DNA of 32,000 bases from Methylophaga frappieri. GTDB lineage: Bacteria > Pseudomonadota > Gammaproteobacteria > Nitrosococcales > Methylophagaceae. The notes beneath the pieces are model-generated. The model worked only from the letters and a program-made list of their open reading frames with translations, was not told the origin of the DNA and made no database searches. The translations under genes and the position numbers were made by a program. This document shows, in pieces, positions 1-26,080 of the stretch. The DNA is taken from assembly GCF_000260965.1 (NCBI RefSeq), contig NC_017856.1, positions 540,001 to 572,000 on the forward strand. Direction: 5' to 3'. How positions within the stretch are numbered: the first letter of the stretch is position 1; every line of letters begins with the position of its first letter.

Positions 1-1049
1 TGCTTATCTTCGTCGGTGGGAGCCTCACAGATTCGACGAATATCCTGATACATGGCAAACCCCAGCGTATAGGGGTTGATACCGCTATACCAAGGGCTAT
101 CAAACGGAGGTTGGTAGGTAACAGCAGTATGAGATTGTAGAAACTCAATCATAAACCCATCGGTCACTAACCCTTTATCATAAAGTCGATTAAGAATGGT
201 GTAGTGCCAGAATGTCGCCCAGCCCTCGTTCATCACTTGTGTTTGTCTTTGGGGGTAAAAGTACTGCGCTATTTTACGCACTATTCTGACAATTTCTCGT
301 TGCCAAGGCTCCAGTAACGGTGCGTTTTTCTCAATAAAGTAGAGCAAGTTTTCTTGCGGCTCTTTGGGGAACCTGTTCTGCTCACCGGGTTTCTCTTTCC
401 CTTTTTTTGTCGGGAGAGTAAGCCAAAGCTCGTTGACTTGCTGTTGCAGGTATTCCTCTCGTTCTTGCTGACGGTTTTTTTCTTCTGCTGCAGAGATGGG
501 GGGTGGGCGTTTATAGCGGTCTACCCCGTGGTTCATAATCGCATGGCAAGAGTCCAGAAACTTCTCAACGGTTTCAACTCCGTGGCGCTGTTCGCATTTA
601 GAAATATAGTTACGAGCAAACAACAAGTAATCGATGATCGCACTCGCATCTGTCCAAGTTTTGAATAGGTAATTCCCTTTAAAAAACGAATTGTGACCAT
701 AGGCCGCATGGGCAATCACCAGCGCCTGCATGGTGATAGTGTTTTCTTCCATTAAGTAGGCAATACAAGGGTCAGAGTTAATAACAATTTCATACGCCAG
801 CCCCATCTGACCACGCTGATAGCGCTTAGACGTGTTTAAAAACTGTTTGCCGAAAGACCAGTGATGATAACCCACAGGCATACCGACAGAAGAGTAGGCA
901 TCCATCATTTGCTCAGCGCTAATCACCTCGATCTGATTTGGGTAGGTATCGAGCTTGAATTCCTTGGCGATTTTGGCAATCTCTTTATCGTATTGCTCTA
1001 TAAGCTCAAAGGTCCATTCTGACCCTGATGAAATAGGCTGTTGGTTCAT
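1..1049 (-). CDS. ycgB: SpoVR family protein (YcgB-like), N-terminal ~349 aa; C-terminus lies beyond the window start
   Basis: Not in the ORF track because it is open at the window edge. I translated the minus strand by hand from ATG at 1049..1047: MNQQPISSGSEWTFELIEQYDKEIAKIAKEFKLDTYPNQIEVISAEQMMDAYSSVGMPVGYHHWSFGKQF...QVMNEGWATFWHYTILNRLY. It stays open to base 1. YPNQIEVI..AEQMMDAY and MNEGWATFWHY are SpoVR/YcgB hallmarks. Confidence 0.85.
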   Translation of the reverse strand, partial: MNQQPISSGSEWTFELIEQYDKEIAKIAKEFKLDTYPNQIEVISAEQMMDAYSSVGMPVGYHHWSFGKQFLNTSKRYQRGQMGLAYEIVINSDPCIAYLMEENTITMQALVIAHAAYGHNSFFKGNYLFKTWTDASAIIDYLLFARNYISKCEQRHGVETVEKFLDSCHAIMNHGVDRYKRPPPISAAEEKNRQQEREEYLQQQVNELWLTLPTKKGKEKPGEQNRFPKEPQENLLYFIEKNAPLLEPWQREIVRIVRKIAQYFYPQRQTQVMNEGWATFWHYTILNRLYDKGLVTDGFMIEFLQSHTAVTYQPPFDSPWYSGINPYTLGFAMYQDIRRICEAPTDEDK

Positions 1050-1316
1050 GTTCAACCCCATCTTTTGAACAATTATTCATAAAGTATAGCTCATGGGAAT
1101 AGTCATACTCTCAATTTATTGCAGAGTTAGGATATAGCAACTATTCTTAATGCTATGGATAGAAACCACAGGGAGCTAGTGTTCGTTGTGTAGCGGCTGA
1201 AAGGTTTAGCATCGTATCGAAAAAGTACTATTAGTTAATGATAACGTTGATGGGTGCAGCGACACCGTTGAGTATTTTGAATTGATTTTTCATGCTAAAT
1301 TTTTTGGTAATAGTTT

Positions 1317-2807
1317 ATGAATAAGATTTTTCGCGTTTTTTGGAATTCAAGTTTACAGGTGTGGCAGGCAGTCGGTGAAAATAGTAAAGGTCGTAAAAAG
1401 TGTAAGGTTGGCGCCTCTAAGGCCTCAGGTCGGCTTATTGCTTCTGGTGCTCTGACGCTGTTGAGCGCTAATGTTTTTGCTGCTGACTTACCTACCAATG
1501 GAGTGGTTGTCTCTGGCCAAGTGGCGATCGAACAACAAGCCAACGTGATGAATGTCACCCAGTCTAGCAACAAAGCTGCGGTTAACTGGCAGTCCTTTGA
1601 TGTGGGCAAGAATAATACGGTTAACTTTGTTCAGCCCAGCGCCACCTCAGCCATTCTTAATCGCGTCATTGGCAGCGATGTGTCTAGCATCCAAGGGGCT
1701 ATTAATGCCAATGGTCAAGTCTTTTTAATCAACCCAAACGGCATTTTATTTACTCCTAGCGCACAAGTTAACGTAGGTGCGCTGGTTGCCTCTACGCTTA
1801 ATATTAGCAACGAAGATTTTAACTCCGGCAACTATGTCTTTGCAGGCGATAGTAGCAGCGCCATTATCAACCAAGGCAACATTCAAACCGCTGATGGTGG
1901 TTATGTTGCATTTATTGCCGCCAAAATCGAAAACATCGGCAATATCACGGCCAACAATGGCGAAGTATTGATGGGTGCTGGTGCAAAAGTGACCCTAGAT
2001 ATGGGCGGCCCAGTGAAGCTTGAAGTTGAGCAAGGCGCTATAGATTCACTGATTGCCAACGGCGGCGCGATTCAAGCCGATGGCGGCATGGTGTATTTGT
2101 CAGCAAAAGCCGCTGGCGACTTAGCCTCCAGTGTGATTAACCACACAGGCATTGTTGAGGCGAGCAGTTTAAGCAGTGTGGGCGGTGAAATTATTCTGGA
2201 AGGCGATAACATCAGCTTAGCCGCAGGCAGCGAACTCAATGCCACCGGTGCAACAGGGGGTGGAGACATATTAGTAGGCGGCGATTGGCAAGGCACAGGC
2301 GACATGCGCCAAGCGGTATCCGTTGATATGGCAGCAACGGCCAGCATTGATGCCAGCGCCACGCAATATGGCGACGGCGGTAAAGTGGTATTGTGGTCTG
2401 ATGTTGCTAACGCTGAATCTGTAACCAGCGTTAGTGGCGACATCACAGCCAGTGCAGGTGCAGAAGGTGGTAATGGAGGCAAGGTTGAAACCTCTGGATA
2501 TCTTCTAAAAACAAGTGGAGTAAGCCTTGATTTAACCGCCGAAAAAGGTAGCGGTGGTTTATGGTTATTAGACCCTACTAATATCACTATTTCTGGTTCG
2601 GCTACAACAGCAGGAGCAACACCCTTACCTAATTATGAATCAAATGTTGATAGTTCTAATGTTTTAAATTCTGACATCGTAAACCAGTTAAACTCAGGTA
2701 CGAGTGTAACAATTCAAACAGGAAGTGGAGGCGCTCAAGCGGGAGATATTACCCTCGCTAGCGATATTGTTACCGGTAATATGGCCGGTGATGCAACGCT
2801 TACGTAG
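1317..2807 (+). pseudogene. 5' fragment (496 aa) of a two-partner-secretion exoprotein (filamentous hemagglutinin / CdiA / HecA family)
   Basis: It has an extended signal peptide region MNKIFRVFWNSSLQVWQAVGE. This is followed by a TPS (haemagglutination activity) domain: NGVVVSGQVAIEQ..VTQSSNKAAVNWQSFDVGKNNTVNFVQPSATSAILNRVIG...INANGQVFLINPNGILF. Gly-rich beta-helix repeats come next. Such proteins normally run to thousands of aa; this one stops inside the repeat region at the 2800-2807 junction. No TpsB partner is adjacent. Confidence 0.8.
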
Positions 2808-3654
2808 GCGCGGCTAGGACATAGTTTCTTCCAATAGCCCTAAAGTACTCTGTTAGGCCTTTAGTTATAAATGTCTTACCTGTTCCGGCGTAACCTTTTA
2901 ATAGGAATACGCTTTCTTCCTTATTGCTGAGAAACGAATCGAGCTTATCAACCAATAAACTTTGTCCATCAGTTAAATTGTATTCAGAGAAAGCGTCGTG
3001 AAGTTTAATTAGCTCTCGAGTGTTTTCGGGTGCCAGGTCGAATGTTGATACAGCCCTTGATGATGCTTCCTTGAAATCGGCTAGTTTAACTTGGTCTAGT
3101 TCTTTTTTGAGTTCGAGTGCCTGGTTTTGAGCGATTTGTTCTGATTCTTCAAGTTTCAAGAGCTCTTCTTTTACTTTTTCTAATTGCTCTTCAAGCTCTT
3201 TGTTACTCTGGCTTAGCGCGTTTAGCCCTATATCAGGGTGGCAGGGTTCTATATATGCTGGGTAACTTTCATATGTTGATCCGCTATATGTTTTGAACAT
3301 CCACTGACCGATCAAATATGCATCTCTCAGTAGTGCTAACGCATCATCTGAATGTACGCTTCGGCCATGTGCCGCTTTATTTCCTAACATCCGGATTGCG
3401 TGCAGCTTTTCCACAATATTTTCATCGATTACTTCGATGAAAATATTGGATTTTAGTTTTTCGAAGAACCCATCACTTCGCTCGCAAGGTAAATTTAGTT
3501 CTCTATAGAGGATCCCTACTAACTGTTCAGCAAAGCAACGTAATTTGATAATTGCAGTGTGAGGATCAGTATGTACATATTTCTCAGCGAAATTGGCATG
3601 TTCATATAGTTGAGGCCAGCGGTTTTTTAACAATTCAAAGTTCTTATTGGGCAT
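2800..3654 (-). pseudogene. DUF4145-like N-terminal domain, coiled coil, and the first ~50 aa of a RecD/Dda-type (AAA_30-like) helicase; 3'-truncated
   Basis: The N-terminus (AIIKLRCFAEQLV...LHAIRMLGNKAAHG) fits the DUF4145 pattern. A coiled coil follows (EEQLEKVKEELLKLEESEQ). Then comes LTDGQSLLVDKLDSFLSNKEESVFLLKGYAGTGKTF (Walker A) and VLAAPT, followed by a stop. Helicase motif Ia normally continues APTGxAA. SD AAGGA lies 8 nt before the ATG at 3654. Confidence 0.65.
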
Positions 3655-3715
3655 GCTTAATTCCTTTTATTTCAACCGCTTCTTATCTTCGTGATTCTTC
3701 ATATCAATTGGTTTT

Positions 3716-4123
3716 TTATTTTTTATTATCGCCGTTAAGCGTAAATTCAATAATGTCTTTATGTTTGATGCGACGATGGGTCCCAACTCGATGAAAGGGA
3801 ATTTGACCGCTTTCAAGGAGCTTAATTAGAAATGGGCGTGAGACGTTAAGAACATCTGCAGCTTCTTGGGTTGTCAGTTCAGGTTGCTGTGGTATGACCT
3901 TGACTGAACTTCCATTGCTAATTTCATTTAACGCGTCTGCTAGAAGGCTAATAGCAATTGCGGGCAGTTGAATAATCTTCGGCTCTTCATCATTTCTTAT
4001 AACCTTGATTGAGTAGCTGGATACATTGTCACTTATCAGCTTGCGCAATACCTGTTTCCCTTTGTGTGCTAATTCGATGTCGCTAGCAGAGGGAGGGGAA
4101 TTGACGTTTTTATGTGTTGACAT
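3716..4123 (-). CDS. DNA-binding protein with C-terminal excisionase/MerR-type helix-turn-helix (antitoxin- or regulator-like)
   Basis: The C-terminus LTTQEAADVLNVSRPFLIKLLESGQIPFHRVGTHRRIKHKDIIEF matches the excisionase-family HTH pattern. GGAG lies 6 nt upstream of the ATG. Confidence 0.6.
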   Translation of the reverse strand: MSTHKNVNSPPSASDIELAHKGKQVLRKLISDNVSSYSIKVIRNDEEPKIIQLPAIAISLLADALNEISNGSSVKVIPQQPELTTQEAADVLNVSRPFLIKLLESGQIPFHRVGTHRRIKHKDIIEFTLNGDNKK

Positions 4124-4163
4124 ACTGGCTCCAATGACAAGGCAGAACTTGAGTAATCAATTT

Positions 4164-4186
4164 AAACGAAATAAACGAAATAAACA
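4164..4186. repeat. Tandem direct repeat AAACGAAAT x2.5 in the 244-aa/HTH intergenic region
   Basis: aaacgaaat (4164-4172), aaacgaaat (4173-4181) and aaaca (4182-4186), read directly. It lies about 40-60 nt upstream of the HTH gene start. Confidence 0.6.
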
Positions 4187-4212
4187 ATATATTCGAATCG
4201 TACATTGATACT

Positions 4213-4947
4213 TTATAAACTAACTTGGTTCATTGTTATGCACTGATTAACAACAGAAACTAAAATCTTAGATGATCCACTTGTGGGTATCATAACAAAG
4301 TACATTTTGCTCCCCACATGCTGCCAGAACTCGGCCTCTTGGGCATATTTTTTTGCTTTTTGGATAGCGACGTTTTCTGGCAACTGAGTTTTAGTTAGCC
4401 CCGAACATAGCAGCTTTGAGCACAAAGCCTTCCAAGGATGCTTAGGTACACCGTCTGAAAGCCGTTCCACAAACCGTTCCAGTGCATGACGAGTCACCAC
4501 GACAGGTCCAATGTTCGGAACGTTGATTACCTCATCGATTTCTCTCACGGTAGCATTATCGACGATGTATTCTTCGAAGGAATGTGAGAGCCAATCGTCC
4601 CGCTTCTCTACCGAGATCTGTGCTTCCTGGTATCGAGTGAGCAAGAACCTAGTCAGGCTGTAAAGTGAATGCTGAGTTGAGCGTTGTTTCTGTAACTTTT
4701 TGATGGCTCCTTTACTGACTCGGATTTGAAGCCCATTGCCGCTTCGGTTACTCCCCATCACCTCTTTCACTGACAATAGGTGGTGAATCGCATAGAGCTC
4801 AGCTGCAATTGGCTTTTGCTGCTCAGGTAGCTTGTCGTATTGCTCACCTAAATCGACCTTTAGCTCACCACCTCTTCGAAGGCCGGTCTTCCAGTAAACC
4901 GTAAACTCACCATCAATCTGCTTTGTTAACAGGGTTAATACCATCAT
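4213..4947 (-). CDS. Hypothetical protein (244 aa), no recognisable family
   Basis: Long ORF with ATG start and SD AGGAGA about 7 nt upstream. It is the first gene after the operon terminator at 5011..5033. The segment VVVTRHALERFVERL is faintly reminiscent of DUF4258-type small toxin folds, but this is not supportable. Confidence 0.55.
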   Translation of the reverse strand: MMVLTLLTKQIDGEFTVYWKTGLRRGGELKVDLGEQYDKLPEQQKPIAAELYAIHHLLSVKEVMGSNRSGNGLQIRVSKGAIKKLQKQRSTQHSLYSLTRFLLTRYQEAQISVEKRDDWLSHSFEEYIVDNATVREIDEVINVPNIGPVVVTRHALERFVERLSDGVPKHPWKALCSKLLCSGLTKTQLPENVAIQKAKKYAQEAEFWQHVGSKMYFVMIPTSGSSKILVSVVNQCITMNQVSL

Positions 4948-15665: not shown

Positions 15666-16268
15666 ATGGCCCAAGCAAAACCCAATTACTCAAAACCCAT
15701 CTTTGAACAATCATTCACAATTAATAGCTTACAGGCGCAACGTGTCGTTGACCGTGTTTTTAGACGGACGGTCAGTGCGCTTTACGGAATCGATGTCATC
15801 CTGCGCATCATTGGCGATGAGAACGAAATTGATGAAGTGGAACAGATCATTAGCCAGTTGATCGAGGATTGCGCTAAGGCGGTAGTCAACGAACAATCTC
15901 GTTTGGACAAATTGATGGAGTCCAACGGCATCGATGAAGTACCTGGCTACACCGACCCGATTACCTTCAACGCTAAAATCAGCTCGCCTCAGGTTGGCCA
16001 GTTTGTCGGCTTAGTGCGCAAACTCGATTCGTTGATGATCTCAATGGACACTCTCTGGTTGTCTAGCGTGCTTAGCAACAAGCAACGTGTTGATGGCAAC
16101 TACGCATGGCAACAGCGCATTATCAAACTTGCACGACGCATTATTGATATCGAAATTCGAGCACGAAAATCAGCCCAAGCTAAGGGTAAAGAAGCTGAAG
16201 TTGAGCAAGCGGTGCCTTCTACCGATGACGATATCACTGAAGAGGAAACAGATAACCCCGCCAACTAG
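15666..16268 (+). CDS. Hypothetical protein (200 aa) with acidic C-terminal tail, divergent from the s063-like operon; possible regulator
   Basis: SD AGGAG lies 7 nt before the ATG. The protein is predicted helical, and its tail is STDDDITEEETDNPAN. It vaguely resembles ICE/plasmid DUF1845/PFL_4669-type proteins, which I cannot verify. Confidence 0.55.
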   Translation: MAQAKPNYSKPIFEQSFTINSLQAQRVVDRVFRRTVSALYGIDVILRIIGDENEIDEVEQIISQLIEDCAKAVVNEQSRLDKLMESNGIDEVPGYTDPITFNAKISSPQVGQFVGLVRKLDSLMISMDTLWLSSVLSNKQRVDGNYAWQQRIIKLARRIIDIEIRARKSAQAKGKEAEVEQAVPSTDDDITEEETDNPAN

Positions 16269-16308: not shown

Positions 16309-16472
16309 CCTCAAAATTTGGTGTTGTGGGCTTTGAAACAATGGCTTCGTGTTTTATGCTCCTCATCACACTTATGGACAAAAGCTTCTTAGACTGGTCG
16401 CTCTATTTAGGCTAGTAAGCATTAGGAAAAGTAAGGGTAACGCCCGTATGAATCGACCGAGCTTTCCTAACC

Positions 16473-16495
16473 ACTTAATTGCTTAACAATTAAGT
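16473..16495. promoter_or_regulatory. Perfect 9-bp inverted repeat (ACTTAATTG-n5-CAATTAAGT), candidate operator upstream of the glycosyltransferase genes
   Basis: Read directly. It lies about 100 bp upstream of the GT2 start in an AT-rich 327-bp intergenic region. Confidence 0.35.
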
Positions 16496-16595
16496 ACAAA
16501 ACAGGCTTAAATACCCATTAATCCCAATGAGTTGCATCATATAGCCATCAAGTTGCTTATATTAATAAAGCCTATTAACCATCAATGACTCATTA

Positions 16596-17417
16596 ATGAA
16601 CAATATCATTGTATTAATTGCCACCACCCCTAGAGTGAACCTACTCACAGAGTTTGCTCTACCATCAATCCAGAGTCAGACACACCTACCAACTTCTGTC
16701 GTGCTTGTATCCGATAGCCGTGAGTTATACCAAAGTGAAATAGAACGTCTGCGTAAAAGGCTGCAAGGTATCCCCTTACATACATTAACCAATGCATTTT
16801 CACCAGGTGCTGCTGGTAGTTGGAATACTGGCATCAGCTATATCTCCAAGCATTTCCCTAGTAGCTACATTGCGATTATCGATGATGATGACACTTGGCA
16901 GCCTGAGCACCTACAAACTTGCTTGCGCCACAGCGATGCGAACAAAGCGGATGTCGTACTGTCCGGTATCAACGTCAACTTTGATCAAAGAACAGTGGCA
17001 ACTAACATACCCAACGAACTGACTGTTGATGACTTTCTAATTGGCAATCCGGGATGGCAAGGTTCAAACACCTTCATCAAGACCGAGTTGGCTTTCAAGG
17101 TAGGTGGGTTTACTGATGGCCTAGTGAGTAGCAACGACAAAGATTTTGCCATTCGGGTCTTAGAGTCCGGTTTAGCGACGATCCGTTATACCCATCTAGC
17201 GACAGTTAATTGGATGTGTAACCAGTCACCAGATGCACTTTCAGCACCGGGATCGAAGCAAAAGCTACAAGGATGTGCTCAATTTTTGCGATTACACGGA
17301 AACAAGATGTCTACTGGCACAATGGACCTTTATTTTCAGCGAGCTTTTGAGCTTTTTACTCTTACCAAGGAAGAGATCTTAAATGAACAAAAACGATTGG
17401 AGAGCATCAATGACTAG
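16596..17417 (+). CDS. Family 2 (GT-A fold) glycosyltransferase, 273 aa
   Basis: The N-terminus IIVLIATTPRVNLLTEFALPSIQSQTH...VVLVSDS fits GT2, as does the DxD-type motif AIIDDDDTW (16881..16892). Confidence 0.75.
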   Translation: MNNIIVLIATTPRVNLLTEFALPSIQSQTHLPTSVVLVSDSRELYQSEIERLRKRLQGIPLHTLTNAFSPGAAGSWNTGISYISKHFPSSYIAIIDDDDTWQPEHLQTCLRHSDANKADVVLSGINVNFDQRTVATNIPNELTVDDFLIGNPGWQGSNTFIKTELAFKVGGFTDGLVSSNDKDFAIRVLESGLATIRYTHLATVNWMCNQSPDALSAPGSKQKLQGCAQFLRLHGNKMSTGTMDLYFQRAFELFTLTKEEILNEQKRLESIND

Positions 17418-20400
17418 CTACAGTACCAGAGCTCCAAGCCAATATAGTGAGATTCTTTGCGACCGAAATGTAACGCTAGTTCACTCCTCTGCTGTTGAAT
17501 TTAAAAATGCCGAGGTGGTGATAGCAATTGCTCACAAAAACAAAGCACAAGCTTTATGTAATGCACTAAAAAGCTGCCTACAACAAAGTCTAGTGCAGCA
17601 GTGTATAGCACGCATCCTTGTACTAGATGATAGCTCTGATGCCGCTTGGTCTTCGGAAATAGAAGCGTTACTCCACCACCCAGCAGTAACGCTTTTAAAG
17701 GCAGAATGTGGCTATCCCGCAAGAGCTCGTAACCTTTTGCTCGATTGGGCAGACACGCAACCCAAACTACAATGGATTGCTCGACTCGATGCCGATGATG
17801 AATTATTCGCAACAAATAGCCTCGAAGGGCTCTGGCGTTCTGTTTGCGGTACACAGAAAAAAGCGGCAATCGGCAGCAATAAGTTACGAAAAGATGGACG
17901 AATTCTACCCAGCGACAATATTGCAAACGCCCAAGAGCTAACAGATCATTTCAATCTTGCTGGCTTTATCGAATATTTTGCCTCCGGTAAGCAACAACGA
18001 GAGCTCCCTTCATGTAATTTACTGTTGAGAACTCAGCTGGGCATTAGGTACCCCAATATCCGAAGTGCGGAAGATCACTGGTTAGTGACCAGACTTTTGA
18101 TGTTGCACCCCAATGACGTAGCGGTCTGTCCTTACCCTATCTATGCCATTTATTCGCTTGATGGTGACGATACCAAGCAAAACAAATCCAATCTGGCTTG
18201 GCGAGATCAGAGAAACCGATTGGCGTATGTCGCAAGAACTTGGAGCACACTACTTTCAACCAACCGATATATACTCGGAATTGGTATGGAAGGGGCTGTC
18301 TGGCTACAACACAACCAAGTTTATAAAGAGTTCTATCCCTGGGCGATCACCGACATCGAAGTGCAAGATCTGAGGTCTTTACTTGCTGATAAAGATGTTC
18401 CTATCCCAAAGTTAACATGGAGGAAGTGTGACGGGTTATGGCAATACAATACTGCCTACGAGAGCAGTACGCCGCCCGGATATAAAATCGATGAACAAGT
18501 GATTGTTAACTATCTAACAAAGCTATATCAAGCAGGTATAAGCACGCTTAACATCAAACGAGATAATCTTATCATCACTCCCAAGGGCGAGCTTCAGTAC
18601 ATTGATGTTGGCAAAGACATAAGGCCACTAACCTCGTCATACTTTCGTGACATGTGTGCACGTCTGTACTCGATTGGCATATTGGGCAACAGTGATGAGG
18701 AACTGGTCCGTAGAAAGAGTTGGCGCCGACAGGATGATGCATTAAAAGCCCTTCCGGGGTTTGAGCAATTCTACAACAAGCTAATAGTTCAACTTCATCC
18801 ACAATGTATCGAGCTTAGTAGTCCCCCTCTCCCTAAAGCATCTTTCAAAAGCAAAGCTGTGACCCTAATGATCAAGGCCTGTGGACAAGATGCCAAGGTA
18901 TTCACTGAGCAAGTAGCGCATATCGTTACGCAGCTTAGCTACCCAGTGACTTTTGCTAAAGTCATACTACTCATAGACCCGTATCAAGGGGAGTTTCTGC
19001 GCCAATATGCAAAGGCAAATCTAGCGTCAGTCATTGAGCAGGCTGAAACCCTAAAAGAGCAAGGGCTGATTGACACGATACTTATAGCCCCTTCAGAGCC
19101 AAGCATTATAATGGCGACATACGAAAAGTGGTTCGGTCATAAAGGATGTACAGAAACACATACTCCGAAAAATGCGCCTCTTTTCCCACAAGTTTGGGGA
19201 TTTGACCAAGTGGAAACCACTTACGTACTACAATGTGACTTGGATGTACTGGTTGGTCGCCGGAACTGGCAACATGATTATATCGCCGACATGATTTATG
19301 CCTGTGAGCCAAAAGATGTGTTGGCTGTTGGTTTCAATATCCCCAAAAGCAGTCCTTGCTTTAATCCTTACCATGGTTCCCCTGGTGAATTTGCACCAGA
19401 GGTTCGATTTGGCCTGCTAGATCTGCGCAGAATAAAGGATCAGCTACCGATAGATAATCCACCAGCAGGAAATAGACTCACCTTAACTTGGCACCGGGCA
19501 CTACAGGCCGCAATGAAACAGCGTGGTTTACGAGCGCTACGAGGTGGCGATCCTCAAAGTTACTATGTTCACCCTAGCAATGAGCACAAACATTTACTGG
19601 AGCTTTCGGTTGCACGAGATTTGATTGCACAGGGAGTCGAGCCAAGAGAGCAACACGAGCAGTTTGATTGGGTGCCAGGTACACACTGGAAATACCAACA
19701 GCGGCATGAACCGATTGTGTTTCTTCTAAAAGGCAAACTTACCGAGCACACCTTACTCAAGCGATGCCTAGATTCATTGCGAAGCCAAACTAATCAAAAC
19801 TTTGGCGTGATCCTTATTGATGATGCTAGTGGCGCAGTGCATAACTGGTGCTATCCAATGTTGTTGGATGAGCTCCAGAGCAAAACAACCTTGATAAGGC
19901 ACTGCGTAAACCAAGGCAGAATGCCCAACTTCCTGCTGGCCATCAATGAGATCTGCCAAGATCCCAACACCTTGGTAGCAGTGCTAGATCAAGACGACTG
20001 CTTAATGCAAACCTGTATTGTAGACGCTTTGCTTGCGGCCAAGCAGCAAGGCGCAGATCTCATTCAAATGCCGATGTTTCGCCCGAATAAGCCACTCAAC
20101 TTATATCGTCCTGATTACACTCACCCGAGGCTCGCTGGTGGCGCCAATGTATGGAGCCATCTCAGGGTATTTACCAAAGCGCTCTTTGAACAAGTTCCCG
20201 AAGATTACTTCAAGCGCGCAGACCACTCGGACTGGTTTAATATCGTCACCGACTACGTAACCATGTTACCCATGGCTGAACTGGCAAAGAAGTCTGTTTA
20301 CCTAGACTCCGGTTATGCATACTGGCACCTGCGCCAAAACTCTAGTCATGACAATAGACAGCAAGAAGACAAGTTGATAAGTGAACTACTTTCTAAGCCT

Positions 20401-20463
20401 TCTCTGTTAACGAAAGAAGATAGGTTTGCTGAACAGACGCCAGTATCTTCTGAAGGCGATTGA
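17383..20463 (+). CDS. 1026-aa multidomain protein: GT2, protein-kinase-like fold, GT-A-like domain, GT2
   Basis: Domain 1: VVIAIAHKN...ILVLDDSSD...RLDADDELF (DxD at 17788..17799), SAEDHW. Middle domain: catalytic-loop-like NIKRDNLII (18550..18576) and DFG-like YIDVGKD (18601..18618). Domain 3: LQCDLDVLV (19237..19245). Domain 4: IVFLLKGK...SLRSQTNQNFGVILIDDASG...VAVLDQDDCL (19987..19998). An alternative start is ATG 17410 (GGAGA SD), which overlaps the upstream stop. Confidence 0.7.
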   Translation: MNKNDWRASMTSYSTRAPSQYSEILCDRNVTLVHSSAVEFKNAEVVIAIAHKNKAQALCNALKSCLQQSLVQQCIARILVLDDSSDAAWSSEIEALLHHPAVTLLKAECGYPARARNLLLDWADTQPKLQWIARLDADDELFATNSLEGLWRSVCGTQKKAAIGSNKLRKDGRILPSDNIANAQELTDHFNLAGFIEYFASGKQQRELPSCNLLLRTQLGIRYPNIRSAEDHWLVTRLLMLHPNDVAVCPYPIYAIYSLDGDDTKQNKSNLAWRDQRNRLAYVARTWSTLLSTNRYILGIGMEGAVWLQHNQVYKEFYPWAITDIEVQDLRSLLADKDVPIPKLTWRKCDGLWQYNTAYESSTPPGYKIDEQVIVNYLTKLYQAGISTLNIKRDNLIITPKGELQYIDVGKDIRPLTSSYFRDMCARLYSIGILGNSDEELVRRKSWRRQDDALKALPGFEQFYNKLIVQLHPQCIELSSPPLPKASFKSKAVTLMIKACGQDAKVFTEQVAHIVTQLSYPVTFAKVILLIDPYQGEFLRQYAKANLASVIEQAETLKEQGLIDTILIAPSEPSIIMATYEKWFGHKGCTETHTPKNAPLFPQVWGFDQVETTYVLQCDLDVLVGRRNWQHDYIADMIYACEPKDVLAVGFNIPKSSPCFNPYHGSPGEFAPEVRFGLLDLRRIKDQLPIDNPPAGNRLTLTWHRALQAAMKQRGLRALRGGDPQSYYVHPSNEHKHLLELSVARDLIAQGVEPREQHEQFDWVPGTHWKYQQRHEPIVFLLKGKLTEHTLLKRCLDSLRSQTNQNFGVILIDDASGAVHNWCYPMLLDELQSKTTLIRHCVNQGRMPNFLLAINEICQDPNTLVAVLDQDDCLMQTCIVDALLAAKQQGADLIQMPMFRPNKPLNLYRPDYTHPRLAGGANVWSHLRVFTKALFEQVPEDYFKRADHSDWFNIVTDYVTMLPMAELAKKSVYLDSGYAYWHLRQNSSHDNRQQEDKLISELLSKPSLLTKEDRFAEQTPVSSEGD

Positions 20464-21160
20464 CGTAAAGTGACGCTTGGTTGTCATACATCCACCAATT
20501 TGGAGAAAACTGACTGTCCCTTGAGGCATAGAACAGTGGCTCAATTGCCTGTATATTCTCATAATTCGCTTGATCGAGCCACGTGTGATAACCAACCTTT
20601 GAAAGATCTTCCCACAAGTAGCTTGCTTCTTTACGAGATAAGCTTGGTAGTTGTTGCAAGAGATGAAAACAGTCTTGACTAGCCATTGCGCATGATTTGC
20701 TAGGGCGTTGAGACTGCAATAGCAATTCCGGCCAATCAACCTTATCTTTCCAAGATAGGGCTAAACGCCTCTCTCCCAACCAATTGTGATAGGCCGCTGG
20801 CAGTGCTTTCTTGTTAGAGTGGTCTGGTGTCCTTTCTAATGAAGGTAGCAAAGCCATACAGCTAACACGTACATCGACCTGGTATCCGAGCATCGTCTGA
20901 ATGGCTAGTAGCCCTAGCGAAGGCTTACATCCCAGCGCTTCTTCTAGTTTTCTACTGTTAGTGTCCAGTTTTTCAATGAACTGCTCAGGTACTTCGCCTT
21001 GGACAAGAAATCCTCTTTTAAGGCCTGCCTGTTTACTATTTGTAATTGTTACATCGGTACCAGGTTTGAACGATGCTGGTTGATTGAATCTGATGATTCT
21101 CTCGTTATCAACTATGATCAGTTTCCCCGGACCATTACCAACAATATGCCATATGCTCAA
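20393..21160 (-). CDS. Hypothetical protein (255 aa) with CstII/GT42-like (or DUF115/Maf-like) N-terminal nucleotide-sugar-binding motifs
   Basis: WHIVGNGPGK...IIRFNQP...PSLGLLAIQTMLGY parallels IIAGNGPSL...VFRCNQ...TSG..AVAIALGY of Campylobacter CstII as I remember it. The start is TTG, since an in-frame TAA lies immediately upstream. It sits 24 nt after the radical SAM gene stop. Confidence 0.4.
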   Translation of the reverse strand: MSIWHIVGNGPGKLIIVDNERIIRFNQPASFKPGTDVTITNSKQAGLKRGFLVQGEVPEQFIEKLDTNSRKLEEALGCKPSLGLLAIQTMLGYQVDVRVSCMALLPSLERTPDHSNKKALPAAYHNWLGERRLALSWKDKVDWPELLLQSQRPSKSCAMASQDCFHLLQQLPSLSRKEASYLWEDLSKVGYHTWLDQANYENIQAIEPLFYASRDSQFSPNWWMYDNQASLYVNRLQKILASVQQTYLLSLTEKA

Positions 21161-21184
21161 TTACTCACCCCTGCTCAAATAGCC

Positions 21185-22066
21185 TTATTGGTGCCTGTCA
21201 GACTTCCAATCTCGGTAAATCTTCTTCCAGGTCATTGAAGTCTGCTGTACCAATATTTTTGGACGGAGCTTCGGTGGCACATAGTGCCCGTCTCTGAACC
21301 GACCACACAATCCACAAGCACTCTTCATGAGATCACGCATTTCGTCATCACCTGATGGTAAACGCTGCCGTCCATTTTTTTGATTTAACACTCGATCAAT
21401 ACCACCACCAACAGCGCATGGATAATACCCTTGAGGTGTAAGACCCAATCCACAAGTGCGAGCAATATCGCAGCCGTTAGAATAGTCACTAAACTTGTGG
21501 TACCAACTATCAACAGGCGCCAGATTAAATGGGCCAAAATCGGGCTGAATGGAGTCTGTTTTTGCTGAGTTCTCGATAGACAACCAATCAGGAAGCTTAG
21601 AAATGACCGTATTCACACGGCGCCCATATCCATTTGTCACTAGTTGAATGCATAAGTCAGGCTGAGCTATTTTAAGGCGATGCAACTCTGATAGGATTTC
21701 ATTCAACTCAGGGTGTAGCGTTGGTTCTCCACCGAGAATACGAATTTTCCTCCAACTTCGATGCTGACATAGGCTATCCTCGACAAACTGAGATATTTCC
21801 TCTAATCCTATGTGTTTTTTATCCGGTGCTTGAGCGGATGAGCGATTGCAATTATTGCACTTCAAATTACATTGGTATGTGATATCTATTTCTAACAGAT
21901 CATCAGCCGCTTGATATTGGTACCCCATCAACCTAGTTACAGGCTTCTGCACGCGAAACCATCGCCACAGAGCCTTCAGTTGAAACCAAAACTTAGCGAA
22001 GCGAACCCATTTTTTGGGATAATCGTGTGAATAGATAAAGGGCTCCATGCTATTTCTTAACGCCAT
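21185..22066 (-). CDS. Radical SAM protein (293 aa) with Cys-rich C-terminal region (possible auxiliary Fe-S / SPASM-twitch-like)
   Basis: CX3CX2C motif in ITYQCNLKCNNCNR (21848..21871), plus ILGGEPTLHPEL. C-terminal cysteines occur at NGCDIARTCGLG...YYPCAVGG...KSACGLCGRF. The N-terminus has an aromatic/basic amphipathic stretch, WVRFAKFWFQLKALWRWFRV. Confidence 0.7.
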   Translation of the reverse strand: MALRNSMEPFIYSHDYPKKWVRFAKFWFQLKALWRWFRVQKPVTRLMGYQYQAADDLLEIDITYQCNLKCNNCNRSSAQAPDKKHIGLEEISQFVEDSLCQHRSWRKIRILGGEPTLHPELNEILSELHRLKIAQPDLCIQLVTNGYGRRVNTVISKLPDWLSIENSAKTDSIQPDFGPFNLAPVDSWYHKFSDYSNGCDIARTCGLGLTPQGYYPCAVGGGIDRVLNQKNGRQRLPSGDDEMRDLMKSACGLCGRFRDGHYVPPKLRPKILVQQTSMTWKKIYRDWKSDRHQ

Positions 22067-22387
22067 TAGTTGCTTTTCCTTGGCTCGTTACTAATTGAAG
22101 TTGGAATTCGATACTCGAACGCATAGTGTACCGATTTAGAAAAATAAGATCATAAAAGTAGTGTTATAGGGTGCTAGTGAAGCACTCCATGCCACCGATT
22201 AGATTGAGTAGGTCAAACTACAATGCTGTCATTTTTGAGGTAAAGCATCGCTGGCTCACAATGGGGCAAAAGCGCGTTAGCTGAAGTGCAATCACAAAGT
22301 GCCAAATTGGTTACCTTAAGGCAAATTATGCTCATTAAAGTAACCAAAATGAAACATTATTGGCTCAGCTATTTTAGAAGGATATGC

Positions 22388-25300
22388 TCAATTATTACCC
22401 GAAATTTCTTCCGTCGCCTCCTGACGCAGTTTCTGGGTATCCATTCCGTTTAGCCGGTCAATGGTTCTGTCTGCGGCACTTTGACGGTTTCCATCCACGT
22501 TTAGCGTACTTCCTGAGCCTGTGAGTCGTTCCAGATCCAGTGACGGTACTTCGGGTAGGTTGCCTGTTATCGATAAGATACCTATCCATTCATCCAGATT
22601 GACTTGGCTCCAATCCACCTGGTTTAACTGACTCGCGGTCAAACCTTCACAGTTTGGAGACTTCGCACTGCCCCAGCCAAGGCCCAATTGCGGACGTACT
22701 TGCTCCTGAATGATCCGTGAAAGCGGCGAAGTAAAGCAGCAATATGATTGCCGCTTCTCAACACAGGCTCCTAAGAACTTAGACTTGCAATAAGAGCCTA
22801 TATAGTGGCAACTCTTCAATACCCGCTTGGCGTTCATTTCAAACTCACTCTGCTCACATTTCCAGATAAGCTGAATGAGGATCATGGTGACTGAATAAAT
22901 CATGTAGGCCGTCATAACCGTACTCAGAACCGCGCCCGCAGCGCCCCCCAGCGCAAAGTTACCGCCCGAAACGACACCATCGGCTCCAACCGCGCCACCA
23001 ACGTTGCTAAACAGTGCCGATTGCGCCCCCGAACCAAAGGTCGTACCTACCCATTCAGCCGTTTTGTTGGTCAACACCTGCATGAAGCCAGTCGCAGCTT
23101 GCTCCGCTCCCGCGCCAGCAGCCGTTGATGGCCCAGCCCCCATGAGAGAGTCCCATGCAGACACAAAAGGCTCTTTGACCGCACTCCAAGTGCTCGTGAT
23201 TGGCTCCCTGAGCGTATTCCAGGAACCATAGATTGCCGAAGACGGATTCATGGCCATGACTGCCGTATCAAGCTTGTTGACCGCCACAATCATTGTGATG
23301 TAATCCGATAACGACACGCCACTTGGCTTTTCACAGCAATCCACTATGCCGCCAACGGCTTTTTTGCACTGGCCAGCATTACCTTTAAAGACCGTACACT
23401 CGACGTTGTCTTGGCCATCAGCGCCCGTGCATGACATATCATTGGTCATAAACTGCGCCGCATTAAGCATCGCAGCGGCCTCTGCAAAGTTAGCCTGCTT
23501 GATTGACTCTGGCTCTAAACAATCTGTGCCCATACAGCGAACTGGCCCCTCACAGTTGTATTGAGTTTCCATTCGTGCATTTTGCACTTCAACGCTTTGT
23601 CCGCAGTCATACACCAGACTTTGGATATAGCAGAAGCCTTCATGACCAGCCCCGCCTTCAGTGCATTCGGTTCTGACATACTGGCAGGCCGGGTTTTGCT
23701 CTAGCGCGGCACACGTATTGGTGGTCGTGTTTTGTCCGTTATTAACGATGGTTTGTGTATTACCATTGGCATCTACCCAGCTATCTGAGCTGCCCATGTT
23801 GAACTCTGGATGAGCAGTCGAAGCATTGTAGGTTGCTCTTGCCCTCCAGCATGAGAGTCCCAGTCCATCAGAGCTGCCGCGACTGGTTAAATGAGCAGGA
23901 GACGAAACAACCGCTGGATAAAGGCTCCCAAGATTGGCCAACTCGCCACTACCAACCGTTAACCCGTCGATTCGTTTTGTGCCCGTATCCAAACACTGCC
24001 ACTGCACCGCAGTAAACTGATCCGTTTGCATCAAGCATTGGTCTATGCTCGGATCACTTGATTGATGAACAATGTCTTGCTCTAAGAACTTGCCGGAGAA
24101 TGTCAAGGAAGCGCTCAGTTTCGCAGGAGCCAAACACTTCTGAACTTCTCGGCTGCAAGTATCGAAATCGACTTTGTTCCAGCCAGACTCACATCTGGAA
24201 CGAGTGACTTCCTGAGGTTCATGCCACGAAATAATAGACCCATTGACGACTTTACAGAATGAGCCAACCAAGGTTCCTTTTGGACAGGTCATTTCAGGGT
24301 ACTTAATGGACGGTTTCGTCTCAGTCACAGTTTCCTCATTGCCCGTCAGAGAGAGTGTCGTTTTCCAACCATTTACCTTGGATGGCGACTCGGTGATTTT
24401 TATCTCAGTATTTTGATTATCAAAAATCCTCAGCGTCGCGTATCCAGTTTGCATGGTACTGCTGTGCTGTGGAACAAAGCTGAGCGTTTCAGAGCTAAAG
24501 CAACCGCGCTCAATGAACCAGCTTTGTTGATGGGTTTCAGCGGATACACGTCGCTCTAACTGACACTCAGTAAGCGTGCTGATCTTCTCGCAAACTTGGT
24601 AATCCGGTACATGCTTGGTTTCAGTAAATGGCGTAATCGTCTGAGTAGGCTCACAGGCCTCAAAACTACTTGGTATAAGGTTGGATACCACACACTTTGG
24701 ATCGCTGGTTTGCAATCCACAGTCATAGGTATCGGTAAAACGAATGCATTCACCTTTATCATTGGTCTCGGCACATTCTGACGACATGAATCCACAGGAA
24801 GGATTCGCTTCAAGCACTTGGCAGGCCTGATTTTCAATCCCCTTATAGCTTTCATCATCCACACTCACTTGTACACGCCGACACAAAGGCGATATGCCAG
24901 CCACAGGGCTTGGGCCAAAATAGGATTCACAAACTGAAACACCATTGACCACCGTACATCCGTTGGTTGAAGACGTCTGATCCGTGCATTGAATGCTGTA
25001 GTCTGAAAACATCGTCGGGATATCCGCTGCTTGTTCAATACAGGATTGTGGCGACCAACTATCATTCATCACCACCTTGGTTGGATCAAAGCGCACCTTG
25101 ATGCGTGCATAACCCTCACCACTACCCGTAACCGATACGCGAATTTTGACTGGCACTTCTAAACCTGGCTCTACCGCTTTTAGCTTGGCGGTGAGGTCAG
25201 TATTAGGATTGCGTTCCCAACTGGTACTAAGCTCGCAGCGACCTGCCGTTTCTGGTGGAAAGTTATTGTTCGGCCCAGACCAGACTTTCTGATCGCCAAG

Positions 25301-26080
25301 CCACACCTGCATGTAGTCATCCCATTTGGCGTACTCAAGAACGGCTGAGGTAATCGCATCGGGGTTCACGACTTTGAGTGTGATGGCCTGTTCAAACACT
25401 TTACAACGGCCACTCCAGTAGTTGTCGCCTATTCGTCCAATCCAAACTTCAAGACATCCCTCACCACAAGAGCGAAGGTTCATTGGTCCTGAAACATGCT
25501 CAATAATGCCTGCCGTGTAATCGTGAGTAATAGTGCAGCTGTTAACCGCTGTATTGAGCCTGTCACATTGCTGGTAGTTTGGGCTGCCTTCACCTTGAGA
25601 CTCACAGCCTGGGAAGCTTTGCGTTAATAGATTTGGGTCAGTTTGAACCGCATCGGTTAATGCCCAAAGCGGATCATTGACCATATCTGGCCGAGACCTG
25701 TCTTTGATTTGCTGGAGCGAGCGAAACGCCTCACCCGTAGCGCCATTTTCGGATGCCATGCTCTCTTGGCGCTGCGTCCCCAATTGATTCATACTGGCAT
25801 CAGAGCCATAAACGCCCGTTAAGACATCCAATGAGCCCTGATCCATACCAGGGAAAAGCTCTTGCAAGTTAATCGTCTCATTACCACTGCCATTCGGCAC
25901 CGACAATGTATTGCCATTGAGTGCGGGCATCGCCCAGTTTTGCAGCAATTGCTTACCTTCTTGTTGTCCGCTTAAGCCGGATTGGCGCTGCACATCAGCG
26001 GCCACACCATGTAAGGGCAAGCACGCCATAGTGATTGATAAAACACCCGCTAAAACTCGGGTAAAAAGTGTTGGTTTCAT
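22388..26080 (-). CDS. traN: Conjugative mating-pair stabilisation protein TraN (1230 aa, Cys-rich)
   Basis: It has a signal peptide, many conserved Cys residues, and the C-terminal hallmark KKAVGGIVDCCEKPSG...CCFTSPLSRIIQEQ. SD GGGAGG precedes the ATG at 26080. It follows traU. Confidence 0.85.
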   Translation of the reverse strand: MKPTLFTRVLAGVLSITMACLPLHGVAADVQRQSGLSGQQEGKQLLQNWAMPALNGNTLSVPNGSGNETINLQELFPGMDQGSLDVLTGVYGSDASMNQLGTQRQESMASENGATGEAFRSLQQIKDRSRPDMVNDPLWALTDAVQTDPNLLTQSFPGCESQGEGSPNYQQCDRLNTAVNSCTITHDYTAGIIEHVSGPMNLRSCGEGCLEVWIGRIGDNYWSGRCKVFEQAITLKVVNPDAITSAVLEYAKWDDYMQVWLGDQKVWSGPNNNFPPETAGRCELSTSWERNPNTDLTAKLKAVEPGLEVPVKIRVSVTGSGEGYARIKVRFDPTKVVMNDSWSPQSCIEQAADIPTMFSDYSIQCTDQTSSTNGCTVVNGVSVCESYFGPSPVAGISPLCRRVQVSVDDESYKGIENQACQVLEANPSCGFMSSECAETNDKGECIRFTDTYDCGLQTSDPKCVVSNLIPSSFEACEPTQTITPFTETKHVPDYQVCEKISTLTECQLERRVSAETHQQSWFIERGCFSSETLSFVPQHSSTMQTGYATLRIFDNQNTEIKITESPSKVNGWKTTLSLTGNEETVTETKPSIKYPEMTCPKGTLVGSFCKVVNGSIISWHEPQEVTRSRCESGWNKVDFDTCSREVQKCLAPAKLSASLTFSGKFLEQDIVHQSSDPSIDQCLMQTDQFTAVQWQCLDTGTKRIDGLTVGSGELANLGSLYPAVVSSPAHLTSRGSSDGLGLSCWRARATYNASTAHPEFNMGSSDSWVDANGNTQTIVNNGQNTTTNTCAALEQNPACQYVRTECTEGGAGHEGFCYIQSLVYDCGQSVEVQNARMETQYNCEGPVRCMGTDCLEPESIKQANFAEAAAMLNAAQFMTNDMSCTGADGQDNVECTVFKGNAGQCKKAVGGIVDCCEKPSGVSLSDYITMIVAVNKLDTAVMAMNPSSAIYGSWNTLREPITSTWSAVKEPFVSAWDSLMGAGPSTAAGAGAEQAATGFMQVLTNKTAEWVGTTFGSGAQSALFSNVGGAVGADGVVSGGNFALGGAAGAVLSTVMTAYMIYSVTMILIQLIWKCEQSEFEMNAKRVLKSCHYIGSYCKSKFLGACVEKRQSYCCFTSPLSRIIQEQVRPQLGLGWGSAKSPNCEGLTASQLNQVDWSQVNLDEWIGILSITGNLPEVPSLDLERLTGSGSTLNVDGNRQSAADRTIDRLNGMDTQKLRQEATEEISGNN

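Follow-up and report, generated by a model that had tools for sequence, protein, structure and literature searches.

A 32,000-nucleotide window of Methylophaga frappieri (contig NC_017856.1, positions 540,001 to 572,000) carries an open reading frame (ORF) of 1026 amino acids at 17383-20463 on the forward strand, in which glycosyltransferase (GT) domains and a kinase-like domain share one chain. We consider the chances about even that this large protein acts as the scaffold enzyme in a cassette that builds a glycan, is complete in itself and spreads horizontally, with a kinase-like module that binds a nucleotide. The simplest reading is that of an assembly line making a glycan in several steps. 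Such a line had been suggested in a preliminary description of this DNA, together with a step that phosphorylates or caps the glycan; the latter is now doubtful, as the catalytic-base position of the kinase-like domain is occupied by Asn.

Residue numbers below are those of the 1026-amino-acid ORF, and conservation among close homologues refers to an alignment of 35 sequences with 43-81% identity. The order of the domains, a glycosyltransferase family 2 (GT2) domain (d1), a kinase fold (k), a divergent GT-A-like domain (d3) and a second GT2 domain (d4), is as follows:

17383-20463, forward strand: large multidomain protein (ORF with probable start at 17410; AlphaFold2 (AF2) model)
17440-18192, forward strand: d1, GT2, residues ~20-270 (Pfam and NCBIfam matches, hhalign, invariant DxDD and ED)
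18259-18816, forward strand: k, minimal Hanks-type protein-kinase fold, residues ~293-478 (Foldseek, motif register, weak PDB profile matches)
18829-19698, forward strand: d3, divergent GT-A-like domain, residues 483-772 (beta-alpha-beta topology, invariant QCDxD, 399 representatives)
19699-20412, forward strand: d4, GT2, residues 773-1010 (best PF00535 stretch 791-923; PF11316; invariant acidic motifs)

Pfam, AlphaFold, Foldseek and the motifs agree on this order, which the preliminary description had already read correctly as GT2, kinase-like, GT-like and GT2. The 1026-amino-acid ORF reported there is also real, but its start at 17383 is probably not genuine, the true start probably being the ATG at 17410, with a product of 1017 amino acids. 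The latter is favoured because the N-termini of the full-length homologues (more than 230, of ~985-1043 amino acids) correspond to M10, because a Shine-Dalgarno-like GGAGAG lies ~7 nt 5' of this ATG, and because the ATG overlaps the stop codon of the upstream small GT2 gene as ATGACTAG. An identical 8-nt start/stop overlap between the small GT2 and the large gene is found in the Marinobacter and Thiomicrorhabdus loci, and the two genes are probably translationally coupled. Residues 1-13 are disordered in the AlphaFold model (full-length AF2 model: pLDDT 89.8, pTM 0.83). As k and d3 have no Pfam model, public annotation of the family reads just “glycosyltransferase family 2 protein” or “hypothetical”, and a literature search found no description of either the family or the four-gene cassette presented below.

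Both terminal domains are supported as GT2 by Pfam and by invariant acidic residues, in agreement with what had been proposed for the two ends of the protein. PF00535 (Glycos_transf_2) matches the large protein in two stretches (E = 4e-21, 76.1 bits compared to a cut-off of 23.3) and matches all 35 homologues, while weak GT2-type NCBIfam matches lie at ~21-142 and 775-890, and PF11316 matches d4 in 11 of the 35 members. Invariant across the alignment are D83, S85, D136-x-D138-D139 and E230-D231 in d1, and D814 and D869-x-D871-D872 in d4. By hhalign, d1 is related to d4 (E = 1.5e-5), and both show kinship with the small GT2 (E = 6e-9 for d1 and 7e-9 for d4).

With the full-length AF2 model, Foldseek returned GT-A matches including SpsA, TarP, TarS, RmlT, AvpGT and K4CP (E 1e-8 to 5e-15). 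The best full-length matches were dual GT-A polymerases, namely the chondroitin polymerase K4CP (2z86, E = 5e-15), the heparosan synthase PmHS2 (8viw, 4e-11) and LARGE1 (7zvj, 1e-8). Like the large protein, these enzymes carry tandem GT-A domains on one chain, each adding one type of sugar; unlike it, they stop at two GT-A domains, lack both a kinase fold and a radical S-adenosylmethionine (SAM) partner, and produce long exported polymers.

Because GT-A matches swamped the whole-protein Foldseek list, k was folded alone (residues 288-482, pLDDT 88.9). Searched against the PDB, this isolated model gave 1314 matches with E <= 1e-3, of which the best 50 were all protein kinases, each with a probability of 1.00; PknB (1mru, E = 1.3e-6), ROCK2, Lyn, Hck, Aurora A and Rio2 were among them. 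On the evidence of this model the kinase fold of k is established, which bears out the kinase-like core claimed previously. Profile searches against the PDB gave weak but in-register matches (E 0.03-1; MELK, MARK, AKT and Aurora) over positions ~313-403, and no Pfam kinase family matched k, with ABC1 appearing in just two of the 35 members at E of about 0.09.

In the AF2 model the Gly-rich loop (G299-x-G301-x-E303-G304-x-V306) lies between beta1 and beta2, and K315, invariant in close homologues, is on beta3. These are followed by alphaC, beta4-5, alphaD/E, the catalytic loop (N390-I-K392-R393-x-N395) and, after beta8, the DxG motif (D408-x-G410-x-D412). Aligned with PKA, N390-I-K392-R-D-N395...D408-V-G410 corresponds to D166-L-K168-P-E-N171...D184-F-G, with identical spacings of 5 and 13. 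The position equivalent to the HRD Asp is therefore N390, which is Asn in 34 of the 35 close relatives, the sole exception being the D-L-K-R-A-N of P0069. The Asp of RDN (D394), which had been named as catalytic, is a variable residue (Asp in 21, Ser in 6, Glu in 5 and Ala in 2 of the 35), the true base position being N390.

A wider alignment comprised 92 k domains, namely that of the window protein and 91 taken from relatives that cover every architecture. Its base position is occupied by Asn in 68 domains (~74%), Asp in 18 (~20%), Ser in five and Cys in one, whereas the nucleotide- and metal-binding residues are kept nearly throughout (G301 and K315 each in 91/92, N395 and D408 each in 92/92). 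A single substitution separates the consensus of the family, N-[IV]-[KH]-P-x-N-[LF], from the Hanks motif VIb D-[IL]-K-P-x-N. Nucleotide binding by k is strongly indicated by this conservation. A retained nucleotide/metal site with a dispensable base is typical, by analogy, of ATP-binding pseudokinases, and phosphotransfer to acceptors that do not have to be deprotonated would fit it as well. HER3 (“HRN”) and the JAK2 JH2 domain (“HGN”) have Asn in place of the base, bind ATP and act mainly as allosteric or scaffolding elements with weak or no phosphotransfer. Like them, k keeps the Gly-loop, the beta3 Lys, the catalytic-loop Asn and the DFG Asp, with Asn at the base. They are eukaryotic signalling domains, whereas k is a truncated bacterial version of ~190 residues within an enzyme, in a family of which ~20% retain the Asp.

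A base-assisted sugar kinase or capping step in the style of WbdD is doubtful for k, because the catalytic-base position is Asn both here and in ~74% of the wider family; WbdD itself has the canonical catalytic Asp. Judged by the same motif, k is unlikely to be a classical hydroxyl kinase. We nevertheless weighed the explanation that k functions as an active sugar kinase, adding phosphate or a cap to the glycan and controlling its priming or termination, as in WbdD or in ORF6 of the Klebsiella O7 locus (ORF6-O7), and find it unlikely. The Gly-loop, Lys, Asn and DxG Asp are all intact in a kinase fold, the canonical Asp is present in 18 of the 92 domains, and histidine phosphatase fusions in the wider family (see below) imply phosphorylated intermediates; relatives of ~1720 amino acids, moreover, place a SAM methyltransferase beside k, which echoes WbdD and ORF6-O7 (PMC11231755). 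However, the base is Asn not only in 34 of the 35 close homologues but also in all 27 methyltransferase-containing relatives that were aligned, and the equivalent Asp of ORF6-O7 (D441) is essential for its activity (PMC11231755). A coiled-coil ruler is also lacking, the longest inter-domain helix of the AF2 model (271-292) having 22 residues, and neither an ABC transporter nor an O-antigen context is among the most frequent families in the flanks.

ORF6-O7 is the closest published precedent, a methyltransferase-kinase-CBM-coiled coil-GT2-GT2 protein of Klebsiella pneumoniae (Kelly et al. 2024, PMC11231755). As in the large protein, a kinase fold and two GT2 modules share one chain and a separate GT acts as stand-alone partner, and in both cases the kinase domain is invisible to domain databases and is seen only through an AlphaFold model. 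The kinase of ORF6-O7, however, is APH/AmiN-like and N-terminal, with a coiled-coil ruler before the GTs, whereas k is of the Hanks type, has Asn at the base and lies between GT domains. ORF6-O7 also belongs to an ABC-transporter-dependent O-antigen locus and produces a methyl-phosphate cap; the large protein has a radical SAM partner, and a coiled coil, a transporter and an O-antigen locus are lacking. Among the more distant functional analogues, to which the dual GT-A polymerases above and Bcs3 (see below) also belong, WbdD (E. coli O9a and K. pneumoniae O3) is a further example of a eukaryotic-like kinase fold in glycan assembly. GT domains are absent from WbdD, which recruits the polymerase WbdA and is equipped with a helix that binds the membrane and with a coiled-coil ruler (PMC11231755). 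Its pairing of kinase and methyltransferase is matched in the ~1720-amino-acid relatives, but no methyltransferase is present in the window protein or its cassette.

The third domain, d3, is the most conserved part of the large protein (62% mean column identity). Its secondary structure in the AF2 model (DSSP: E488-500, H507-518, E522-532, H547-559, E565-568, H573-584, E614-619) places D532 after beta2; the invariant Q617-C-D619-x-D621 closes the fourth strand of a core with beta-alpha-beta topology. We regard d3 as probably GT-A-like. The preliminary description had pointed to CDLD in a GT-like context; the invariant QCDxD and the topology support this, whereas membership of GT-A is probable rather than demonstrated by sequence. 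An assignment of d3 as an ordinary GT2 by sequence was rejected, hhalign not reaching significance even with 139 diverse d3 sequences. Sub-threshold Pfam matches over the DxD region in three independent d3 sequences are to GT2 families (P0197, 5e-4; P0241, 9e-4; P0242, 0.06). The two-domain K4CP aligns with the large protein over 576-596 columns, better than any single-domain GT (query coordinates are not reported); this length fits a match of both d3 and d4 to GT-A domains.

It has also to be considered whether k and d3 form a donor-activation module, in which an anomeric or small-molecule kinase and a GT-A-fold nucleotidyltransferase make a private NDP- or CDP-linked donor for the GT2 domains, as do the kinase-nucleotidyltransferase pairs AmgK-MurU and LicA-LicC. 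We consider this very unlikely. The order k-then-d3 is constant across architectures, d3 is the most conserved domain and is not detectably GT2 by profile, and sugar-phosphate nucleotidyltransferases share the GT-A fold. On the other hand, AmgK, NahK and choline kinases need the catalytic Asp that is Asn here, d3 lacks the G-x-G-T-R nucleotidyltransferase signature and has its DxD at the GT-A position, and the sub-threshold Pfam matches on d3 mentioned above are to GT2 families and not to NTP_transferase.

A profile of d3 identified 399 representatives (E <= 1e-3) among 1.84 billion proteins, in many architectures, and d3 is, to judge from this profile, the hub domain of a wider family. Architectures were mapped with custom domain hidden Markov models on the best 150 of these 399 representatives, and some of the short classes may be contig fragments. 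The order of the k-d3-d4 triad was constant among the mapped representatives, which comprised d1-k-d3-d4 (16 representatives), k-d3-d4-rSAM (14; rSAM, radical SAM), d1-k-d3-d4-rSAM (6), sGT2-d1-k-d3-d4-rSAM (6 single polypeptides of ~1513 amino acids; sGT2, small GT2) and sGT2-...-k-methyltransferase-d3-d4 (42, ~1720 amino acids); a d3-rSAM fusion was also found. Because these Rosetta-stone fusions join the small GT2, the domains of the large protein and the radical SAM enzyme, the three are, on the strength of the fusions, placed in one pathway.

Megaproteins of ~1700-1960 amino acids (P0220, P0223, P0243 and ~40 others) consist of a small-GT2-like domain, ~540 unassigned residues, k, a SAM methyltransferase, d3 and d4; the base of k is Asn in all of them, and one of their sources is Salinisphaera dokdonensis. 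Three relatives (P0206, P0218, P0226) carry a histidine phosphatase (His_Phos_1) immediately behind d3 or d4 on the same chain, and in one of them a radical SAM domain comes next; the phosphatase hints at a phosphorylated pathway intermediate. Bcs3 of Haemophilus influenzae type b likewise carries transferase, phosphatase and polymerase modules on one chain and passes on a phosphorylated sugar intermediate. The multi-module chain and, in some relatives of the large protein, the histidine phosphatase domain recall Bcs3, which differs in its PRPP-dependent ribofuranosyltransferase and TagF-like folds, in its ABC-transporter capsule locus, and in having neither a kinase fold nor a radical SAM partner. 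Stand-alone d3 of ~290 amino acids was observed in Methanofollis (P0196) and d3-d4 in an archaeal metagenome-assembled genome (MAG; L047). As it is present in a methanogen and an archaeal MAG, d3 is not confined to bacteria.

The large gene lies in an insert of 6.05 kb that holds exactly four genes, the other three coding for the small GT2, a 255-amino-acid orphan (p255) and a radical SAM enzyme:

15666-16268, forward strand: ORF of 200 amino acids of the integrative and conjugative element (ICE) backbone, s063-like, left border of hotspot HS4 (98% identical DNA in R997 and other SXT/R391 elements)
16314-22382, no strand assigned: four-gene cargo insert, ~6.05 kb (backbone homology stops at 16313/16340 and resumes at 22383)
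16596-17417, forward strand: small GT2, 273 amino acids (Pfam PF00535, E = 7e-12; invariant D96-D97-D98-D99)
20393-21160, reverse strand: p255, 255-amino-acid orphan (conserved partner; 39 homologues, all “hypothetical”)
21185-22066, reverse strand: radical SAM enzyme, 293 amino acids (Pfam PF04055, E = 1.5e-10; CX3CX2C)
22388-26080, reverse strand: traN, right border of HS4 (R997 traN annotation under matching DNA)

Neighbouring genes were surveyed in 53 loci from Gamma-, Beta- and Alphaproteobacteria, Planctomycetota, Myxococcota, Verrucomicrobiota and Bacteroidota. The small GT2 gene is upstream of the large gene in ~48 of these loci (tblastn) and directly adjacent in most, with the radical SAM gene between the two in the Planctomycetota and Myxococcota loci. 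The radical SAM gene was found in 26 loci by tblastn and in 19 by ORF clustering, in three different positions and with 46-83% identity across loci (36-37% for one outlier), while p255 is convergently downstream in 31-33 of the 53 loci, in Proteobacteria only. A 325-amino-acid NAD-dependent epimerase recurs 1.8-4.6 kb upstream of the large gene in seven loci (L004, L006, L008, L044, L046, L047, L051), a UDP-sugar epimerase-like neighbour found in Vibrionaceae, Myxococcota, Flavobacteriaceae, the archaeal MAG and Thiohalomonadaceae; by its N-terminal motif (...GIDNLNDYYDV...) it looks like a UDP-glucuronate 4-epimerase.

Within the cassette, p255 gave no match in Pfam (window protein and 24 members), PDB (by sequence or profile), PADLOC or PHROG, is not fused in any relative and has no detectable kin of known function. 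A resemblance to GT29/GT42 sialyltransferases (motifs VGNGPG...RFN, PSxG and HxxxxE) was considered and rejected, hhalign against Cst-II having matched GNGP only, with a probability of 1%. The 3' ends of the large gene (forward) and p255 (reverse) overlap by 70 nt (20393-20463). In other Vibrionaceae loci this overlap measures 46-67 nt, and in the majority of the remaining lineages 1-25 nt. Such an arrangement could provide antisense or transcriptional-interference coupling. A promoter and terminator scan of the insert gave nothing beyond shuffled expectation, and no transmembrane segments were predicted in any of the four cassette proteins.

The radical SAM enzyme belongs to a family of more than 1000 members that, like the fusion proteins, carry generic names only. 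In addition to C66, C70 and C73 (21 of 21 sequences), five C-terminal cysteines are conserved (C199, C205 and C217 in 20 of 21; C251 and C254 in 21 of 21), which suggests that the protein probably carries an auxiliary cluster, perhaps twitch/SPASM-like. Residues 17-41 (KKWVRFAKFWFQLKALWRWFRVQK) are rich in Trp, Phe, Lys and Arg and moderately amphipathic (hydrophobic moment, muH, 0.57), and this segment could serve as a peripheral membrane anchor. The pVip models of PADLOC (residues 60-148) and the peptide-maturase families of NCBIfam match the protein over the generic core alone.

A radical SAM enzyme with an auxiliary cluster and GT2 domains also co-occur in glycocin and sactipeptide clusters, and the cassette might thus make a glycosylated RiPP (a peptide made on the ribosome and modified after translation) or another small natural product; peptide maturation would then fall to the radical SAM enzyme, and the GT2 domains would act as S/O-glycosyltransferases in the manner of SunS. 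We hold this to be highly improbable. The weak NCBIfam matches to peptide-maturase families that would favour it are confined to the generic core, a radical SAM-GT fusion is atypical of RiPP maturases, and no conserved precursor peptide, protease, exporter or immunity gene was found among the clusters of flanking ORFs of at least 90 amino acids, a size range that leaves short precursor ORFs outside its scope.

The borders of the insert identify the host element. Homology to the ICE backbone breaks off at ~16313-16340 and picks up again at 22383, at the end of traN, and the flanking backbone is 98% identical on the left (97% for a V. alginolyticus element) and 94.7% on the right to Proteus ICEs (R997 and two others). 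By this homology, the host element is an SXT/R391 ICE and the cassette is the whole cargo of hotspot HS4, which we take to be the traN-s063 interval. The conjugative element assumed in the preliminary description is accordingly an SXT/R391 ICE; the protein is, however, not a stand-alone oddity of an ICE, as the cassette spans many phyla, mostly outside ICEs. Hotspots are named HS1-HS5 as in the literature on SXT/R391 (PMC4857294). At the same junction, R997 (L056, NZ_KY433363.1, 8498-15313) carries cadR, a cation transporter, lspA, an ISL3 transposase, an endonuclease, a DUF87 (HerA-like) gene and SIR2, the last two of which look like a SIR2-HerA-type defence pair.

Elsewhere in the window, positions 1-4290 form a second variable region, which neither R997 nor the ICE of V. 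alginolyticus shares, and homology to the backbone begins at ~4289-4507. This region contains a 496-amino-acid protein with ESPR and TPS domains (1317-2807, forward), like the N-terminus of a truncated two-partner-secretion exoprotein, a DUF4145 protein with a truncated PIF1/AAA_30 helicase fragment (2800-3654, reverse) and an HTH_17 protein (3716-4123, reverse); GC content falls to 0.395 at 3-4 kb.

In other genomes, the cassette was found between hsdR and hsdM/hsdS in six loci (two Marinobacter, three Shewanella and one Nitrincola). In Thalassotalea it has an integrase on one side and a complete type I-F CRISPR-Cas locus on the other, with an nSTAND NTPase adjacent; in Marinobacter it lies in Tn7-like cargo beside KAP NTPase and DUF499 genes, in Thiomicrorhabdus in an integrase island, and on a Salinivibrio chromid beside IS110 and ISAs1 transposases. 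A 99% identical copy is present on a V. cholerae chromosome, outside an ICE, among housekeeping genes. Several other identities for the cassette were rejected. A plasmid-borne trait was dismissed, the single plasmid or chromid match being that of Salinivibrio, and so was a phage-borne DNA-modification module, as no homologue was found in 50,697 phage records or, by a pattern-based scan, in IMG/VR. The frequent flank families do not support a typical locus for O-antigen or capsule: ABC transporters, Wzx and Wzy are all missing from the 25 most frequent Pfam families of 100 flanking ORFs from ~40 loci. The possibility, raised at the outset, that the architecture is common in standard O-antigen loci was thus checked, and these 25 families give no sign of such a locus.

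These settings lead to two further explanations. Genes embedded in type I restriction-modification (R-M) operons have been reported to be enriched for defence functions (PMC11411939; bioRxiv 10.1101/2024.01.29.577857). The cassette may represent an unrecognised conflict or defence system, in which a pseudokinase-GT machine and a radical SAM enzyme glycosylate a universal target; we think this somewhat improbable but give it a real chance, a role in defence being plausible. Candidate targets would be nucleic acids, nucleotides or proteins, whether belonging to invader or host, and conserved receptors of the envelope. If true, such a system would account for the embedding in R-M operons, the placement as ICE and Tn7 cargo and the transfer across phyla.

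Narrower is the explanation that the cassette is an intracellular defence against phages or other mobile genetic elements, in which the GT/kinase-fold machine and the radical SAM enzyme act on nucleotides, nucleic acids or proteins of invader or host and not on a glycan of the envelope; we judge this unlikely. It draws on the six loci between hsdR and hsdM/S, to which the guilt-by-embedding principle applies (10.1101/2024.01.29.577857), on the neighbouring CRISPR-Cas and nSTAND NTPase, KAP NTPase and DUF499 genes, on the SIR2 and HerA-like genes in HS4 of R997, and on the solubility of all four cassette proteins; the radical SAM core also resembles MoaA and viperin-type enzymes acting on nucleotides, although in the generic core only. 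However, no nuclease, DNA-binding, sensor or effector-type domain was recognised in the cassette, many loci lack defence neighbours, and four GT sites are hard to fit to signalling or abortive infection. PADLOC gave no match, and a known defence system was rejected on this result.

Returning to the glycan-building cassette, several observations weigh against it or parts of it. No exporter, flippase or lipid-carrier enzyme is linked to the cassette, and because of this an envelope product would have to rely on host machinery. A large share of loci lack the radical SAM gene, and a large share lack p255. As 18 of the 92 k domains carry the canonical Asp, some family members may be genuine kinases, and Asn variants of kinases can retain weak activity. 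Comparisons of d3 with d1, d4 and the small GT2 were not significant (hhalign E 0.02-0.4), although the beta1-alpha1-beta2 register was correct, and d3 could be a nucleotidyltransferase or another GT-A-fold enzyme. With regard to defence, the large protein, small GT2 and p255 had no match in PADLOC-DB v2, and because housekeeping or signalling genes of an ordinary kind surround the cassette in many loci, those of V. cholerae, Planctomycetota and Myxococcota among them, the association with defence genes, which is not statistical, is suggestive at most.

From the observed folds, motifs, gene linkage, fusions and genomic contexts we infer the catalytic competence of each domain, the role of k, the product, the acceptor and the biological role as follows. 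Four GT-type sites (the small GT2, d1, d3 and d4) would be arranged on a soluble machine around k, which most likely is an ATP- or NTP-binding module with an allosteric or scaffolding function; alternatively, it may act as a phosphotransferase to an acceptor that needs no deprotonation, for instance a phosphate or carboxylate. The partners of the large protein would be the translationally coupled small GT2, the radical SAM enzyme and, in Proteobacteria, also p255. Tailoring of a sugar or nucleotide moiety is probably the task of the radical SAM enzyme with its predicted auxiliary Fe-S cluster. The product would be a short modified oligosaccharide made from ubiquitous donors, and the acceptor something common to very different diderm bacteria. 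The cassette would be accessory cargo of mobile elements and defence islands, and its pay-off would probably lie in conflict with phages or other elements, through alteration of a receptor or of the envelope or through an intracellular target; the product may also be a soluble glycoconjugate.

GT machines with built-in kinase modules have been described only lately, and only in O-antigen terminators. The present family adds a new setting, in that the machine is soluble and transporter-free, is mobile across phyla and has a radical SAM enzyme as partner or fused domain, and that its kinase module has systematically shed the base but kept the nucleotide site. The natural Asn, Asp and Ser variants at the base position represent a series for asking what role a base-less kinase fold plays in an enzyme. 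If alteration of a receptor or intracellular defence is indeed its function, glycosylation chemistry would join the cargo functions of SXT/R391 elements in Vibrio and Proteus.

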